Positions 1 to 29,480 of a DNA stretch of 29,480 nt are shown one piece after another. Below the pieces are notes generated by a model. It was not told the DNA's origin. It made no database searches and saw nothing but the letters and a program-made list of their open reading frames with translations. Position 1 is the stretch's first letter. The number at the start of each line of letters is the position of its first letter. Position numbers and translations under genes: made by a program. The stretch is from a virus (Duplodnaviria > Heunggongvirae > Uroviricota > Caudoviricetes), in IMG/VR virus record IMGVR_UViG_2541047692_000014; one strand, written 5' to 3'.

Positions 1-1011
1 TTATAACGTCACTCCGCCTTTTAGTGGATTCAGAGCGACGGCATTTTGCAGATAGTCAGGCGCAAGGTGCGCATAGGCCATCGTCTGCTGAATGCTCGCA
101 TGTCCCAGAATCTGTTGCAGTGCGATTATATTGCCCCCATTCATCATGAAATGGCTTGCGAATGTATGCCGCAGGATGTGGGTTGCCTGATTGGGTGGTA
201 TATCAGGTTTCACTCTGCGTAAAATCCCGCAAAATTTCTCATAATCAACTTTGAATAATTTGGCGCTGGCCTCCTCTTTAACTTTTTTCTCCAGTTCCTC
301 AGAAATCGGCACGGTTCGCTTTTTACCGTTTTTGGTTTTCAGGAAGGTAACCCTGCAATTTGTAATCTGTGCTGGTTTTAGCGTGGCAACTTCCGTCCAT
401 CTTCCTCCAGTGCTCAGACATAAAAGCGCGACAAGTAAGTCATCACCAGCCAAAACATTTAACAGTTTTTCGATTTCTGCTTTTTCCAGGAACGTCATTT
501 CAGGGTTGGCCTCCGCCAGTGGCGGCAGTCCGTGAATTGGGTGTTGCCCAGAAAATTCATCCAATTGAATTAATTTTGTGAACATGCCGGATAATCGGTA
601 CATGTCACGGTTTATCGTTGCGGCACTGATACCATCACGTAGTCGCATGGAACGATAATCCATCAAAGCCCTTTTGCTCATCCTGCTCACTGGTATATCA
701 CCTATGCCGCTGATGGTTTTGAGTAGATGATTAAACTCTTTTGTTCCATGCTCGTGGTTTTGCCCGTGATATTTCCACCAGATGTCCAGCAACTCACTCA
801 AAGTCCGGCGGTCTGCTCGCTGGCCTCCCCATTCTTTCTGACTGGCATTGGCGATTGTGTATCGCTCAAATGCTAGTGCTTCAGCTTTTCTTTCGAATTT
901 CCTGCGGATGCGTTTTCCGTCGCGACCGCGAGGTCTAATGTCCACTTCATAGCGACCATCATCGAGCTTCTTAATTGCCATAAGAAAGCCCTCCGGCGCT
1001 GTATTCACCAT
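1..1011 (-). CDS. int: Tyrosine integrase (P2 Int-like), 336 aa
   Basis: Translation has a C-terminal tyrosine recombinase signature (HTFASHFMMNGGNI...LQQILGHASIQQTMAYAHL) and sits next to the repressor at the prophage end. An internal ATG at 981 (MAIKKL...) has a better SD (GGAGG, 8 nt spacing) and may be the true start. Confidence 0.9.
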   Translation of the reverse strand: MVNTAPEGFLMAIKKLDDGRYEVDIRPRGRDGKRIRRKFERKAEALAFERYTIANASQKEWGGQRADRRTLSELLDIWWKYHGQNHEHGTKEFNHLLKTISGIGDIPVSRMSKRALMDYRSMRLRDGISAATINRDMYRLSGMFTKLIQLDEFSGQHPIHGLPPLAEANPEMTFLEKAEIEKLLNVLAGDDLLVALLCLSTGGRWTEVATLKPAQITNCRVTFLKTKNGKKRTVPISEELEKKVKEEASAKLFKVDYEKFCGILRRVKPDIPPNQATHILRHTFASHFMMNGGNIIALQQILGHASIQQTMAYAHLAPDYLQNAVALNPLKGGVTL

Positions 1012-3013: not shown

Positions 3014-3510
3014 TGCCGGACAACGTAGATTTTATTCAGGAACAACAGGCTGAATTACTGGAGCGCCAGATTAACGCGGCAAGGGTAAAACATTGCGGTG
3101 TTTCTGCGCTGGTTTGCGAAGAGTGTGACGCGCCAATACCTGCTGCCCGTCGTGCGGCTTATCCATCAGCCACGCGTTGTGTTTCCTGTCAGTCAGTCTT
3201 TGAAGCAAAAAAACAAACATTACCGGAGAATGGCATGAGCATTCGTATTGAAATTGGCGAACGTTATGTCGTTACCAGTGACAGCTTTCAGTTTATTCTC
3301 CACGAGAAAAAGAGAGCGGAAAGCGGTAAAAACGCCGGTCAGGAATGGCTGTCGGTGGTTGGTTATTACCCGAAATTAAGCCAGCTCGTTTCCGGCCTGA
3401 TGCATCACGATATTCTGACCGGAAGCGCAAAGTCTTTTGCTGATTTAAACGCGCAGGTTGAGCAACTCAGCAGGCGTTGTTCAGAGGCTTTTGGCTCATA
3501 TGGCCGTTAA
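3013..3510 (+). CDS. TraR/DksA-family C4 zinc-finger protein (orf82-like) fused in frame to an orf83-like domain, 165 aa; an internal start at 3235 would give a separate 91-aa product
   Basis: N-terminal 70 aa carry a CxxC-N17-CxxC motif (CEECDAPIPAARRAAYPSATRCVSCQ) typical of TraR/DksA zinc fingers. There is no stop before the downstream segment; the in-frame ATG at 3235 has a good SD (GGAG). Confidence 0.55.
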   Translation: MPDNVDFIQEQQAELLERQINAARVKHCGVSALVCEECDAPIPAARRAAYPSATRCVSCQSVFEAKKQTLPENGMSIRIEIGERYVVTSDSFQFILHEKKRAESGKNAGQEWLSVVGYYPKLSQLVSGLMHHDILTGSAKSFADLNAQVEQLSRRCSEAFGSYGR

Positions 3511-5785
3511 AGCCTCCGGGCGTTTTGTCCCTCCGTCAGCATTTGCCGCAGGCACCGGTAAGGCGTTTACCGGTGCTTATGCATGGAACGCGCCACGCGA
3601 GGCCGTCGGGCGCGAAAGACCCCTTACACGTGACGAGATGCGTCAGGTGCAAGGTGTTTTATCCACGATTAACCGCCTGCCTTACTTTTTGCGCTCGCTG
3701 TTTACCTCACGCTATGACTACATCCGGCGCAATAAAAGCCCGGTGCACGGGTTTTATTTCCTCACATCCACTTTTCAGCGTCGTTTATGGCCGCGCATTG
3801 AGCGCGTGAATCAGCGCCATGAAATGAACACCGACGCGTCGTTGCTGTTTCTGACAGAGCGTGACCACTATGCGCGTCTGCCGGGGATGAATGACAAGGA
3901 GCTGAAAAAGTTTGCCGCCCGTATCTCATCGCAGCTTTTCATGATGTATGAGGAACTCTGCGATGCCTGGGTGGATGCGCATGGCGAAAAAGAATCGCTG
4001 TTTACGGATGAGGCGCAGGCGCATCTGTATGGTCATGTTGCTGGCGCTGCACGTGCTTTCAATATTTCCCCGCTTTACTGGAAAAAATACCGTAAAGGAC
4101 AGATGACCACGAGGCAGGCATATTCTGCCATTGCCCGTCTGTTTAACGATGAGTGGTGGACTCATCAGCTTAAAGGCCAGCGTATGCGCTGGCATGAGGC
4201 GTTATTGATAGCTGTCGGGGAGGTCAATAAAGACCGTTCTCCTTATGCCAGTAAACATGCCATTCGTGATGTGCGTGCGCGCCGTCAGGCAAATCTGGAG
4301 TTTCTTAAATCGTGTGACCTTGAAAACAGGGAAACCGGCGAACGCATCGACCTTATCAGTAAGGTGATGGGCAGTATTTCTAATCCTGAAATTCGCCGGA
4401 TGGAGCTGATGAACACCATTGCCGGTATTGAGCGTTACGCCGCCGCAGAGTGTGATGTGGGGATGTTTATCACGCTGACCGCGCCGTCAAAGTATCACCC
4501 GACACGTCAGGTCGGAAAAGGCGAAAGTAAAACCGTCCAGCTTAATCACGGCTGGAATGATGAGGCATTTAATCCGAAGGATGCGCAGCGTTATCTCTGC
4601 CGTATCTGGAGCCTGATGCGCACGGCATTCAAGGATAATGATTTACAGGTCTACGGTTTGCGAGTCGTCGAGCCACACCACGACGGAACGCCGCACTGGC
4701 ATATGATGCTTTTTTGTAATCCACGCCAGCGTAACCAGATTATCGAAATCATGCGTCGCTACGCGCTCAAAGAGGATGGCGACGAAAGAGGAGCTGCGCG
4801 AAACCGTTTTCAGGCAAAACACCTTAACCGGGGCGGTGCTGCGGGATATATCGCGAAATACATTTCAAAAAACATCGACGGCTATGCACTGGATGGTCAG
4901 CTCGATAACGATACCGGCAGGCCGCTGAAAGACACCGCCGCGGCTGTTACCGCATGGGCGTCAACGTGGCGCATCCCGCAATTTAAAACGGTTGGCCTGC
5001 CGACAATGGGGGCTTACCGTGAACTACGCAAATTGCCTCGCGGCGTCAGTATTGCTGATGAGTTTGACGAACGCGTCGAGGCTGCACGCGCTGCCGCAGA
5101 CAGTGGTGATTTTGCGTTGTATATCAGCGCGCAGGGTGGGGCAAATGTTCCGCGCGATTGTCAGACTGTCAGGGTTGCCCGTAGTCCGTCGGATGAAGTT
5201 AACGAGTACGAGGAAGAAGTCGAGAGAGTGGTCGGCATTTACGCGCCGCATCTCGGCGCGCGTCATATTCATATCACCAGAACGACGGACTGGCGCATTG
5301 TGCCGAAAGTTCCGGTCGTTGAGCCTTTGACTTTAAAAAGCGGCATCGCCGCGCCTCGGAGTCCTGTCAATAACTGTGGAAAGCTCACTGGTGGTGATAC
5401 TTCGTTACCGGCTCCCACACCTTCTGAGCACGCCGCCGCAGTGCTTAATCTGGTTGATGACGGTGTTATCGAATGGAATGACCCGGAGGTCGTGAGGGCG
5501 CTCAGGGGCGCATTAAAACACGACCTGAGAACACCAAACCGTCAGCAAAGAAGCGGAAGCCCGTTAAAAGCGCATGAAATAGCGCCATCGGCCAGACTGA
5601 CCCGGTCGGAACGAATGCAAATTACCCGTATCCGCGTTGACCTTGCTCAGAACGGTATCAGGCCGCAGCGATGGGAGCTTGAGGCGCTGGTGCGTGGCGC
5701 GACCGTAAATTATGACGGGAAAAAATTCACGTATCCGGTCGCTGATGAGTGGCCGGGATTCTCAACAGTAATGGAGTGGACATGA
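3500..5785 (+). CDS. A: Replication initiation protein A (rolling-circle nicking endonuclease), 761 aa
   Basis: Long ORF with the rolling-circle initiator motifs HWHMMLF (HUH-type metal site) and YIAKYISKNIDGY (catalytic tyrosines). Start placed at the ATG at 3500 (MAVKASGRF...), which gives the P2 gpA length; the ORF-track start at 3458 is an upstream extension overlapping orf83. Confidence 0.92.
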   Translation: MAVKASGRFVPPSAFAAGTGKAFTGAYAWNAPREAVGRERPLTRDEMRQVQGVLSTINRLPYFLRSLFTSRYDYIRRNKSPVHGFYFLTSTFQRRLWPRIERVNQRHEMNTDASLLFLTERDHYARLPGMNDKELKKFAARISSQLFMMYEELCDAWVDAHGEKESLFTDEAQAHLYGHVAGAARAFNISPLYWKKYRKGQMTTRQAYSAIARLFNDEWWTHQLKGQRMRWHEALLIAVGEVNKDRSPYASKHAIRDVRARRQANLEFLKSCDLENRETGERIDLISKVMGSISNPEIRRMELMNTIAGIERYAAAECDVGMFITLTAPSKYHPTRQVGKGESKTVQLNHGWNDEAFNPKDAQRYLCRIWSLMRTAFKDNDLQVYGLRVVEPHHDGTPHWHMMLFCNPRQRNQIIEIMRRYALKEDGDERGAARNRFQAKHLNRGGAAGYIAKYISKNIDGYALDGQLDNDTGRPLKDTAAAVTAWASTWRIPQFKTVGLPTMGAYRELRKLPRGVSIADEFDERVEAARAAADSGDFALYISAQGGANVPRDCQTVRVARSPSDEVNEYEEEVERVVGIYAPHLGARHIHITRTTDWRIVPKVPVVEPLTLKSGIAAPRSPVNNCGKLTGGDTSLPAPTPSEHAAAVLNLVDDGVIEWNDPEVVRALRGALKHDLRTPNRQQRSGSPLKAHEIAPSARLTRSERMQITRIRVDLAQNGIRPQRWELEALVRGATVNYDGKKFTYPVADEWPGFSTVMEWT

Positions 5786-6237
5786 TGGCAAAAATTCACG
5801 AGGTAAAGCTGCACGCAAAATATTTTGACCTTGTGCTGGAAGGAAAGAAACGCGCAGAGTTTCGGAAAAATGACCGTAATTATGAGCGCGGGGACACGTT
5901 GATTTTGCATGAATGGGCGCAGGGTGTGTATACGGGGCGAAAGGTTGAAGCCCGGATAACAGATGTTACTGACCTGTCAGACTGGCTGGAAGATTATGTC
6001 TTGCTAAGTATTGAGCTGCTTAATACAGGCGCATATGAGATTGTGAACTGGAAAGAACTTAGTGAGCGTGGTCTGGTATTCAGAATTAATCATGAAATTA
6101 TGCATCAGCTCGGCCTTTCTGTTATGTATGCACCAGAGACGGGGATGTCTGGCGGGGCAATGGTTGCCACGGATGGAGCATGGAACTATTCAGATGAACA
6201 GATTGAGCGTGCAAAGCAAAACGGGTGGCTTGGATAA
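5782..6237 (+). CDS. ASCH/DUF3850-like domain protein with C-terminal extension, 151 aa
   Basis: ATGA overlap with the gene A stop; N-terminal segment (KIHEVKLHAKYFDLVLEGKKRAEFRKNDRNYERGDTLILHEW) resembles ASCH/PUA-fold proteins. The domain call is from memory and unverified. Confidence 0.55.
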   Translation: MMAKIHEVKLHAKYFDLVLEGKKRAEFRKNDRNYERGDTLILHEWAQGVYTGRKVEARITDVTDLSDWLEDYVLLSIELLNTGAYEIVNWKELSERGLVFRINHEIMHQLGLSVMYAPETGMSGGAMVATDGAWNYSDEQIERAKQNGWLG

Positions 6238-6443
6238 TGCACAGAATACCGGGCGAGATACCGCAACATAACACTAAAAATATCAAGCTGATGGCTATTG
6301 TTCACCGTCTACAGCAGATTATGGTCAACGAAAATCTGACGCCTGACGAGCTGGTCGGGTGTGCCGAAATAGTCCGGGATAATTACGGGCGGCTTAATTA
6401 TATCCGTCAGTCCAGAGTTGCTCCACCGCCACGCAGACTATAG
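6237..6443 (+). CDS. Small hypothetical protein, 68 aa
   Basis: ORF translationally coupled to the upstream gene (TAATG at 6235-6239). No recognisable motif. Confidence 0.45.
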   Translation: MHRIPGEIPQHNTKNIKLMAIVHRLQQIMVNENLTPDELVGCAEIVRDNYGRLNYIRQSRVAPPPRRL

Positions 6444-6658: not shown

Positions 6659-7261
6659 ATGTTATTAATGAATGAGAAAAAAAGACAAAAATATCTAAAG
6701 ATAATGTTTGAATGTCAAAAGCGACTTGAAACACTTCATGCTTTATCATCTGGAAGGATTGATGGCATTTATTTTCAAGTGTTAATTGAAATGGAGGCGT
6801 TGCAGCTTAGGAAGCTACTAGAGCTCATTGCATTTTCATCTCTAATTTCACATGAAAAAGCATACGAGAAGGTTACAAAGAAGATTGATGGTGTATGGAA
6901 GGCGAAGAATATATTTAAAGAGTTGGAAAAGATAAACCCTAACTTTTATCCAGTACCAATATCAGGAGTAACCAAAACGGGCTGGACGAAACTAACGGGA
7001 GGTTTTTTGACGAAAAAACAGTTTATCAAGCTATATGATGAATGCTCAAAACATATTCACGTAAGGAACCCATATCGGGTTAGGGAAAACTCGCTGGGGT
7101 TTCATAAAAAAGTTCCAGAGTATTTATCAAGAATTGAAACTCTACTGTTAAAGCACATTGTTTCTCTTGCCGGGAATGAAGAACTTCTTCTTGTAGATGT
7201 GCCTCATTATGAAGACTCTGTAACAGCTATAAAAATGAGCCACCTCGTTAAAATGGGGTGA
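6659..7261 (+). CDS. Hypothetical protein of unknown function, 200 aa, AT-rich cargo at the P2 tin/old hotspot; candidate anti-phage defence or superinfection-exclusion gene
   Basis: Uninterrupted 200-codon ORF (alternative start at 6668) in a markedly AT-rich block, unlike the flanking phage core. It follows a 215-bp non-coding spacer and is followed by a stem-loop plus T-run. It sits between the replication module and cos, where P2 carries tin/old. Confidence 0.6.
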   Translation: MLLMNEKKRQKYLKIMFECQKRLETLHALSSGRIDGIYFQVLIEMEALQLRKLLELIAFSSLISHEKAYEKVTKKIDGVWKAKNIFKELEKINPNFYPVPISGVTKTGWTKLTGGFLTKKQFIKLYDECSKHIHVRNPYRVRENSLGFHKKVPEYLSRIETLLLKHIVSLAGNEELLLVDVPHYEDSVTAIKMSHLVKMG

Positions 7262-7667: not shown

Positions 7668-8702
7668 TCAGCCGTTGTCAGTGTCCAGTGAGTAGTTTTT
7701 AAAGCGGATGACCTCCTGACCAAGCCAGCCGTTTATCTCGCGGATCCTGTCCTGTAGCGGGATAAGCTCATTGCGGACAAAGACCTTTGCCACTTTCTCA
7801 ATATCTCCCAGTGACCCGACGTTCTCCGGCTTGCCGCCCATCAACTGAAAGGGGATGCGGTGCGCGTCCAGCAGGTCTGCGGCACTGGCTTTTTTGATAT
7901 TAAAAAAATCGTCCTTCGTTGCCACTTCACTGAGCGGGATAATTTTAATGCCGTCAGCTTTCCCCTGCGGGGCATAGAGAAACAGATTTTTAAAGTTGTT
8001 GCGGCCTTTCGACTTAACCATGTTTTCGCGAAGCATTTCGATATCGTTGCGATCCTGCACGGCATCGGTGACGTACATGATGTATCCGGCATGTGCGCCA
8101 TTTTCGTAATACTTGCGGCGGAACAGCGTAGCTGATTCATTCAGCCAGGCAGAGTTAAGGGCGCTGAGATATTCCGGCAGGCCGTACAGCTCCTGATTAA
8201 TATCCGGCTCCAGCAGGTGAAACACGGAGCCGGGCGCGAAAGGTGTCGGTTCGTTGAAGGACGGCACCCACCAGTAAACATCCTCCTCCACGCCACGGCG
8301 GGTATATTTGGCCGGTGAGGTTTCCAGTCTGATGACCTTACCGGTGGTGCTGTATCGCTTTTCCAGAAACGCATTACCGAACACCAGAAAATCCAGCACA
8401 AAGCGGCTGAAATCCTGCTGGGAAAGCCACGGATGCGGGATAAACGTTGAAGCCAGAATATTACGTTTGACGTAAATCGGTGAGCTGTGATGTACGGCAG
8501 CACGCAGGCTTTTTGCCAGACCGGTAAAGCTGACCGGTGGCTCATACCATCTGCCGTTACTGATGCACTCGACGTAATCCAGAATGTCACGGCGGTCGAG
8601 TACCGGCACCGGCTCACCAAAGGTGAATGCCTCTATTTTCGGGGCGCTGGCGGTCATTGTTTTCACCGCTGGCTGCGGTGTTTTCCCTTTTTTCTTGCTC
8701 AT
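7668..8702 (-). CDS. Q: Portal protein, 344 aa
   Basis: 344-aa ORF, the P2 gpQ length, adjacent to and overlapping (ATGA) the terminase large subunit gene and divergent from the capsid operon. Confidence 0.9.
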   Translation of the reverse strand: MSKKKGKTPQPAVKTMTASAPKIEAFTFGEPVPVLDRRDILDYVECISNGRWYEPPVSFTGLAKSLRAAVHHSSPIYVKRNILASTFIPHPWLSQQDFSRFVLDFLVFGNAFLEKRYSTTGKVIRLETSPAKYTRRGVEEDVYWWVPSFNEPTPFAPGSVFHLLEPDINQELYGLPEYLSALNSAWLNESATLFRRKYYENGAHAGYIMYVTDAVQDRNDIEMLRENMVKSKGRNNFKNLFLYAPQGKADGIKIIPLSEVATKDDFFNIKKASAADLLDAHRIPFQLMGGKPENVGSLGDIEKVAKVFVRNELIPLQDRIREINGWLGQEVIRFKNYSLDTDNG

Positions 8703-21962: not shown

Positions 21963-21971
21963 ACACAAGGC

Positions 21972-21995
21972 GGGCTTATTGTCCGCTTTTTCTTT
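21972..21995 (+). terminator. Putative terminator after the V-W-J-I-H-G operon
   Basis: GCGGGC-TTATT-GTCCGC hairpin (one G-T wobble) followed by TTTTTCTTT, 10 nt after the G stop. Confidence 0.45.
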
Positions 21996-22095
21996 ATCGG
22001 TGGTTGTGCTGTCGATTAGCCAACCGGGACAAATAGCCTGACATCTCCGGCACAACTGAAAATACCACTCACCCATTAACCACGGAGTTAAACGG

Positions 22096-28479: not shown

Positions 28480-28698
28480 ATGTTTCATTGTCCTTTATGC
28501 CAGCATGCCGCACATGCGCGTACAAGTCGCTATATCACTGACACGACAAAAGAGCGTTATCACCAGTGTCAGAACGTGAATTGCAGCGCCACGTTCATCA
28601 CTTATGAGTCGGTACAGCGATACATTGTGAAGCCGGGAGAAGTCCACGCCGTAAGGCCGCACCCGTTGCCGTCAGGGCAGCAAATTATGTGGATGTAA
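28480..28698 (+). CDS. ogr: Late gene transcriptional activator Ogr (zinc-finger protein), 72 aa
   Basis: Start at the ATG at 28480 (MFHCPLCQHAAHARTSRY...ERYHQCQNVNCSATF) gives 72 aa with a CxxC-N22-CxxxxC zinc-binding motif characteristic of Ogr/Delta activators. It is the last phage gene before the prophage end. Confidence 0.9.
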   Translation: MFHCPLCQHAAHARTSRYITDTTKERYHQCQNVNCSATFITYESVQRYIVKPGEVHAVRPHPLPSGQQIMWM

Positions 28699-28708
28699 TT
28701 ACAAACAG

Positions 28709-28739
28709 AAAGCCCCTCAGTCGAGGGGCTTTCTGTTTT
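28709..28739 (+). terminator. Rho-independent terminator after ogr
   Basis: Perfect 8-bp stem AGCCCCTC-AGTC-GAGGGGCT followed by TTCTGTTTT. Confidence 0.8.
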
Positions 28740-28838
28740 GGGGAATATTCTTCATTAAAAGTAGTGGATCACGTTTAATAAACTATGTTTATCATATACT
28801 TAAAAGTCAATCTTTAAAGTTGGACAGGTTGGTGGAAA

Positions 28839-29480
28839 ATGGAAAAAGTTATAATTGAGCTTGATAATCGTTGGGAGTTAGCTGATTTCGCGGTCTTAAC
28901 GAAAGAGTATTTGCAGCTATATGGTTTTTTTTATGGCCTAAAAGGAGGATCAAGAGGATATTCAACAATGCCTTGGGAGGGTGGGCACAGTGTGGTGAAC
29001 TTTTTTAGAGGGGCTTACAGTGCGACTCCACCAGATTTACGTCCTGTAGTGAAAAAAATTCAGTATGCCTCTCCTGGCTTTATTGAATTGTCTGCTCTTA
29101 TTGATATCTCTTGGCAGATTGCTGAGTTAGTTACTGCTGTTGGTGGAAGTATTCTGGCTGCCAACAAAGTTTACGATCAGGTGATGCGTACATATCGACA
29201 AAGAGAATGGGCAAAGTTGAAATCAGAGAAGCTGCGTATACAGAATCAAATTAAAGAGATTGAACTTGTTTCTGACGCAGTTAAATCACTTGAATCTGTG
29301 ATGGCACTTAGTGAAGAACAACGTAAAAACTTGGTTCAACTATCGGGGGCAGATGAACTGGTTCAGTTAAAGATACTTTTGGCTGTTTACCGACGGTTAT
29401 CTCCTCTTGTTGAGTTGCAAAACAGCGGGAAAGCTAATTTTTCTGCTGGGAAAAATAAAAATTTAAAAGCGTCCGATTAA
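28839..29480 (+). CDS. Hypothetical protein, 213 aa, AT-rich, with predicted coiled-coil C-terminal half; immediately beyond the ogr terminator (prophage-end cargo or flanking host gene)
   Basis: Complete ORF with SD (GGTGGAAA-ATG) and a stop at the last base of the window; composition clearly more AT-rich than the phage late genes. No recognisable catalytic motif. Confidence 0.55.
   Translation: MEKVIIELDNRWELADFAVLTKEYLQLYGFFYGLKGGSRGYSTMPWEGGHSVVNFFRGAYSATPPDLRPVVKKIQYASPGFIELSALIDISWQIAELVTAVGGSILAANKVYDQVMRTYRQREWAKLKSEKLRIQNQIKEIELVSDAVKSLESVMALSEEQRKNLVQLSGADELVQLKILLAVYRRLSPLVELQNSGKANFSAGKNKNLKASD

Follow-up and report, generated by a model that had tools for sequence, protein, structure and literature searches.

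The 213-aa open reading frame at the right end of the analyzed DNA (ORF213) is an accessory (moron) gene of a P2-like phage, as it lies inside attL-attR, is variably present and has an atypical base composition. Its location, boundaries, homology, architecture and conservation are established. With moderate confidence we hold that this gene of a Wphi-type prophage, which encodes a stand-alone version of the PD-T4-10B C-terminal domain, acts as a single-gene anti-phage protein.

The window, i.e. the whole analyzed stretch of 29,480 nucleotides, is a P2-like prophage in prophage order. Its first base belongs to the stop codon of int, and its last to the TAA of ORF213. The following features are referred to below.

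1-1011, minus strand: int, at the left end of the window.
3458-5785: replication gene A, one flank of a classical P2 hotspot.
7668-8702, minus strand: portal gene, the other flank of this classical hotspot.
28480..28698, plus strand: ogr, which activates the late genes and is the last of the conserved P2 genes; it encodes a 72-aa Ogr/Delta zinc-finger protein, and all matching E. coli genomes list it as ogrK.
28709..28739, plus strand: intrinsic terminator of ogr, a GC-rich hairpin read directly in the sequence (AAAGCCCCTC-AGTC-GAGGGGCTTT and a T-run).
28733..29480 and 12 nt past the window end (to about 29492), plus strand: cargo segment of ~760 bp, delimited by alignment of the prophage-bearing genome L001 with the cargo-less prophages L025 and L026.
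28740..28838, plus strand: AT-rich non-coding spacer (30% GC) of 99 bp between the ogr terminator and the ATG of ORF213.
28839..29480, plus strand: ORF213, 213 aa with an ATG start, a stand-alone short-form homologue of the PD-T4-10B C-terminal domain.
29468..29480 and 9 nt more past the window end, no strand assigned: hairpin AGCGTCCG-ATTAAA-CGGACGCT, the 5' half of which is inside the window (L001 9069-9090).

An earlier, sequence-only reading of this DNA had described a complete 213-aa ORF behind ogr, its terminator and an AT-rich spacer of ~100 bp, and the coordinates 28839-29480 are confirmed. It had also remarked that the base composition is unlike that of the phage late genes, which holds: the GC content of ORF213 is 39.9% as compared with 55.7% in the late genes, GC3 is 32% as compared with 61% in gene D, and 1.9% of the 642-bp windows within the stretch are as AT-rich. 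An SD-like GGTGG is found at 28831-28835, three bases 5' of the ATG, and a plus-strand scan of the spacer for sigma-70 promoters returned nothing convincing. The hairpin that spans the stop codon is a perfect 8-bp one with a T-run on the minus strand only. It resembles a terminator for that strand alone, and could stop transcription entering the prophage from the fieF side.

A second AT-rich cargo (37-40% GC) is present in the classical P2 hotspot, at 6659-7261 (plus strand) together with 5749-6237 and 6225-6443. The 200-aa ORF in this hotspot has no Pfam or PADLOC match, and a 162-aa ORF just upstream of it carries ASCH/DUF3850 and DUF7415 domains. The second P2 hotspot (Z/fun position), flanked by the genes for tail-fibre assembly and sheath, has no cargo here, the intergenic gap at 21963-22095 being 133 bp long.

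In E. coli chromosomes ORF213 and ogr are found between cpxP and fieF. The att sites were mapped by aligning the empty site of K-12 with L001. Without a prophage, the cpxP-fieF gap of K-12 is 148 bp long and contains a single att core, the 3'-UTR sRNA cpxQ and no ORF. The att core is a 47-bp direct repeat, GACACCATCCCTGTCTTCCCCCACATG(A/C)TGTGGGGGTTTTTTTTATC, corresponding to the 3' end of cpxQ and the cpxP terminator. Its left copy lies beside int, 116-162 bp to the left of window position 1 (L001 1439-1485), and its right copy lies 83-129 bp to the right of the window end (L001 9164-9210), ORF213 itself ending at L001 9081. Just inside the core copy on both sides is a direct-repeat pair, TGTGGAC(A/G)CTATGTGGACA, in agreement with the P2-type Int arm-site consensus tgTGGaCa (PMC3448106). 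The outermost of these Int arm repeats is 13 nt from ORF213, and arm repeats and core together span 13-130 bp past the window end. An attP was predicted by fusing arm and core of the right side with arm and int end of the left side, and this sequence was found uninterrupted in 39 isolated phage genomes, with up to 99.4% identity over 332 nt, including L-413C, R18C and vB_YpM_50.

The Wphi1 prophage of E. coli W sits at cpxP-fieF (PMC3032704), and the Wphi core is common to L-413C (PMC3448106). The features of Wphi-type integration are present here: the core is that of the cpxP-fieF attB, with P2-type arm repeats on either side. By these sequences this is a Wphi-type and not a P2-type att site. 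The sequence-only reading recognized no P2 core because the core is Wphi-type and outside the window; its statement that no att core separates ogr from ORF213 is correct, the core being downstream of ORF213 and beyond the window end.

Since the attR core and the Int arm repeats are both downstream of ORF213, the gene is inside the prophage, and belongs to the P2-like prophage and not to the host. Whether it was phage cargo or the first gene of host or island DNA had previously been left open. The first of these options is now backed by the attR core, the arm repeats, the empty K-12 site and related prophages that lack the gene, and the second has fallen away. An att core upstream of 28839, combined with the ORF in prophage-free strains, had been proposed as the mark of an ordinary host gene; the core was found downstream, and the K-12 site is without the ORF. 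The idea that host or island DNA flanking the prophage begins with ORF213 is hardly tenable. An AT-rich composition unlike that of the phage and an ogr-ORF213 interval devoid of an att core would suit it, but the attR core and P-arm Int sites are downstream of the gene, the empty K-12 site is 148 bp with no ORF, the identical protein follows ogr in 10 of 10 contexts, and the reconstructed attP is contiguous in isolated phages. The host-gene reading was discarded on the att evidence.

The att core is formed by the last (3') two-thirds of the sRNA CpxQ, terminator included (L001 9164-9210; L002 1831-1888). Integration rebuilds cpxP-cpxQ at attL, and leaves a promoterless CpxQ 3' fragment with its terminator at attR, just downstream of ORF213. 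Because this copy of the cpxP/CpxQ terminator in attR is the nearest, and the sole, plus-strand terminator 3' of ORF213, transcripts of the gene could end within CpxQ sequence. When the att regions were scanned with Rfam, the only matches were sub-threshold ones to Hrs1 on the wrong strand, which were disregarded.

The alignment of phage records and cargo-less prophages to the window stops at 28732, inside the ogr terminator, and homology to the cargo-less prophages resumes at L001 9094, which equals window position 29493. In the cargo-less Wphi-type prophages inspected (L025 and L026) the segment is replaced by ~9 bp, the ogr terminator being joined to the arm repeats. Among 5426 complete E. 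coli genomes, ~160 carry ORF213 and ~630 more have the 77-bp P arm only, these counts of "empty" sites being approximate since partial matches of the ogr-arm junction query to other P2 types blur the result. Over the ~160 genomes the protein shows 99-100% identity, and the identical protein is always located 3' of ogr, also where the prophage is degraded or IS-ridden, and also in Salmonella. It persists where the prophage has undergone heavy deletion (int, A and D truncated) or disruption by ISEc12 and ISEc22 (L001 1602-8000 and L038).

A homologue with 77% identity occupies the same ogr-gene-arm-core-fieF slot in a much more diverged prophage, where the spacer 5' of the gene is not conserved. 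Between the two genes dN is 0.134 with dS saturated, and for ogr in the same comparison dN is 0.083, also with dS saturated, so that dN/dS is not expressible as a ratio. A dN of 0.134 with saturated dS is consistent with purifying selection and with an old association between the gene and the phage lineage.

A tblastn search of the phage genome collection yielded no ORF213 homologue, and in the plasmid collection the only matches were a mislabelled chromosomal contig and a Vibrio replicon. The former, NZ_CP092913.1 (L027), is a linear 80-kb Salmonella "plasmid unnamed1" with fieF, pfkA, sbp, a prophage end and ORF213, and looks like a chromosomal contig filed as a plasmid. Salmonella phage STYP1 (KX833211.1 / NC_073747.1; L039, L040) is deposited as a "complete genome" in prophage order. 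The first bases of the record are from the 3' part of host cpxP, and its attL core is at 23-69. At the other end it breaks off 3 nt short of the ATG of the ORF213 homologue, so that the cargo gene and attR are cut off; its boundaries are wrong on both sides.

The family to which ORF213 belongs includes a known toxin. PD-T4-10 of E. coli ECOR65 consists of two overlapping ORFs, of which B is toxic and A neutralizes it, and the pair acts by abortive infection against T-even phages (Vassallo et al. 2022, Nat Microbiol). This behavior is known for the ECOR65 system only, and neither A nor B has a known activity. Searches of ORF213 with Pfam, PHROGs and NCBIfam profiles gave nothing significant. 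The PADLOC profile PD-T4-10_B (PDLC04024) matches it with an E value of 1.3e-34, residues 3-201 aligning to profile positions 139-346 of 353, and PDLC04025 and PDLC04026 match as well. We found 118 homologues, and 794 clusters at 50% identity in an exhaustive profile search. With hundreds of homologues and such a profile match, the "orphan" label of the sequence-only reading is wrong.

Two architectures exist in the family. The long forms (320-400 aa) are composed of an N-terminal DUF6575-like domain followed by the ORF213-type domain; they match the whole B profile and hit Pfam DUF6575. At the three long-form loci examined, an overlapping upstream gene of 145-191 aa matches PD-T4-10_A (PDLC04023, E 1e-14 to 1e-23). 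The short forms (205-250 aa), ORF213 included, consist of the C-terminal domain alone, and ORF213 begins at the domain boundary. HMMs of A and of the N-terminal domain found no match in any frame of the window, nor within 5 kb of 12 short-form loci. Short forms account for ~200 of the 258 sampled clusters. In a rough neighbor-joining tree 195 of the 198 members of one large clade are short, and because of this we judge the short architecture to be old and stable, and not a set of scattered truncations. The residues W12, Y28, P45-W46-x-G48-G49-x-S51, Y76-A-S78-P79-G80, K178 and R185-R186 are invariant in both forms.

In P2-like prophages the short forms follow ogr. Elsewhere they are found at a prophage end in Pectobacterium, behind umuC-like genes, in cassette-like arrays of Vibrio and between host genes, and no conserved neighbor gene accompanies them across the inspected loci. 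In Pseudomonas sp. GM80 (L020 5001-6668) a short form is followed 28 bp on, on the same strand, by a DUF4917 gene, beside an S24 repressor in a prophage; together they may constitute a two-gene defence cassette of this lineage. In Vibrio (L016-L019) the same 209-aa homologue is present in differing arrays of small unrelated ORFs that resemble integron cassettes, and in two of these arrays an ORF of 51-54 aa begins 5 nt past its stop codon.

AlphaFold2 models of the short and the long form have pLDDT values of 84.5 and 90, respectively. The regions of ORF213 are as follows.

28839..29096, plus strand: N-terminal alpha/beta subdomain, aa 1-86, with the invariant W12, Y28, PWxGGxS (45-51) and YASPG (76-80).
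29088..29168, plus strand: hydrophobic helix, aa 84-110, a possible membrane segment according to Kyte-Doolittle 19-residue windows.
29151..29423, plus strand: helical C-terminal region, with a long helix at aa 105-154, helices at 159-169 and 173-195, and the conserved K178 and R185-R186.

The model of the short form has a further helix at 88-103, ahead of the long helix 105-154. The best Kyte-Doolittle 19-residue score of ORF213 is 1.35, below the usual transmembrane threshold of 1.6. For the helix aligned to residues 84-110, the mean best score is 1.84 in the short forms (n=205), 72% of which reach 1.6, and 0.62 in the long forms (n=53), 4% of which do. By this measure the hydrophobic central helix is a trait specific to the short forms. 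The second half of the protein had been predicted as coiled-coil, a claim that survives in part: AlphaFold2 places a single long helix at 105-154, but heptad regularity is weak, the hydrophobic fraction at a/d positions being 0.60 in the best register versus 0.46 overall. Fold comparison of the short and long forms matched neither to a known fold, and gives no biochemical activity.

We infer a defence role for ORF213, together with membrane action and self-sufficiency. With the ogr terminator on one side of it and the outermost Int arm repeats of attP on the other, the gene would travel with the phage and leave attP intact. The lysogen would produce it as a single-gene anti-phage protein, acting by abortive infection or superinfection exclusion, with the conserved C-terminal domain of PD-T4-10B as the effector. 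The protein may work at the inner membrane by means of the hydrophobic helix that is typical of the short-form clade. We propose this because ORF213 is phage-borne, variable, AT-rich, conserved and homologous to a toxin, and because its relatives are in defence-cargo positions: homologues occupy the ends or immunity regions of prophages and the cassette-like arrays of Vibrio, which are typical sites of defence cargo. The proposal should be interpreted with some caution. The C-terminal domain of B may not be the effector. Moreover, a solo toxin without an antitoxin needs other control, and none was found for ORF213. Also counting against the proposal are the lack of a clear promoter in the scan, the sub-threshold helix score of ORF213, the lack of a fold match that would suggest an activity, the seemingly binary slot and, as regards transfer by particles, the absence of the gene from the sequenced virion genomes of the phage collection.

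The absence of an antitoxin is also what could be expected of a protein that is not toxic at all. ORF213 could be a counter-defence or regulatory mimic, which titrates or poisons PD-T4-10-type systems of the host or their trigger, or else a lysogenic-conversion factor unrelated to defence. A phage-carried, shortened version of a defence protein that is stably kept without an antitoxin would fit such a role. However, homologues are found outside phages too, in cassette arrays and between host genes, where the use of a decoy is not obvious, and the hydrophobic helix, as a gained feature, points to a new localization rather than to mimicry. We consider this explanation unlikely.

Alternatively, the protein could be toxic and kept in check by a cryptic antitoxin, either an RNA (antisense or structured) or a peptide of less than 25 aa, or by trans-acting phage regulators, in which case the locus would be a cryptic toxin-antitoxin or addiction module. 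The toxicity of canonical B on its own agrees with this, as do two promoter-like sites on the minus strand of the spacer and the hairpin across the ORF213 stop codon. The promoter matches are, however, at chance level (4 against an expected 2.7), conservation of the spacer does not extend to the 77% homologue, and no conserved small ORF lies beside the short forms. This explanation appears improbable.

Given the conservation, a dead remnant is the least likely when set against the decoy or conversion-factor and the cryptic-antitoxin explanations. It is very doubtful that ORF213 is what remains of a decayed PD-T4-10 pair, functionless after the loss of the antitoxin and the N-terminal domain: the lack of A and of a DUF6575 domain, and persistence even in degraded prophages such as L001, speak for decay, but the short forms constitute ~200 of 258 sampled clusters and are mostly in one clade with uniform start and length, all core motifs are intact, dN is 0.134 with dS saturated relative to the same-slot homologue, and the protein is 99-100% identical in ~160 genomes.

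A broader version of the single-gene anti-phage reading can be put forward tentatively. The short forms would then be a widespread, unrecognized single-gene branch of PD-T4-10B that is free of antitoxin, in which the helix tethers the effector to the membrane in place of control by the N-terminal domain and the antitoxin. Wphi-type phages would have one more cargo slot at the ogr-attP junction, missed routinely both by system-level defence finders and by boundary calls. If a solo short form defends alone, the C-terminal domain would be the effector of PD-T4-10, and a defence of the toxin-antitoxin type would be shown to be reducible to one gene. Several hundred hidden defence genes of Gammaproteobacteria would then have been passed over by two-gene detection rules. 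As for the boundary calls, they trim ORF213 or omit attR: the GenBank record of STYP1 ends before the ATG, and the present window ends at the stop codon. As a result, P2-like phages carry more cargo at their ogr end than is counted.

Compared with known systems, ORF213 is closest in sequence to PD-T4-10. Its full length resembles the C-terminal ~210 residues of the B toxin, with which it has the PWxGGxS, YASPG, K178 and RR185-186 motifs in common, and both are cargo of mobile elements. Canonical B, in contrast, has an overlapping A antitoxin gene and an N-terminal DUF6575-like domain, both of which ORF213 lacks; the central helix of ORF213 is more hydrophobic, and it falls in a separate clade of single-gene proteins of 205-250 aa. 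Judged on its sequence, ORF213 is built like PD-T4-10B, yet it is not a PD-T4-10 system because the A gene and the N-terminal domain, two defining features, are absent. Detectors that require A and B would presumably miss it.

With respect to the phage, the gene is comparable to the P2 accessory and defence genes old, tin and Z/fun, which likewise are AT-rich, variably present and dispensable to the phage, and ORF213 is a candidate anti-phage gene in the same sense. The same att core, arm repeats and int end are shared with Wphi / L-413C-type phages, the attP being 98.5-99.4% identical to those of L-413C, R18C and vB_YpM_50, but the sequenced phages of this type join ogr straight to the P arm, with no ORF213 homologue. 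Published P2 hotspots are located at gpA-gpQ, in the tail-gene region (Z/fun), at int-att and at int-primase, and the gpA-gpQ hotspot houses many alternative systems (Rousset 2022; Vassallo 2022; NAR 2026 gkag898). The slot of ORF213, from ogr to the P arm of attP, is absent from the published hotspot lists, and it differs from gpA-gpQ in that it looks binary, with ORF213 or nothing in the inspected cases, and not like a diverse hotspot. What was already known is the PD-T4-10B toxin family, and what is new is its solo short form at the ogr-attP locus, outside the published P2 hotspots.
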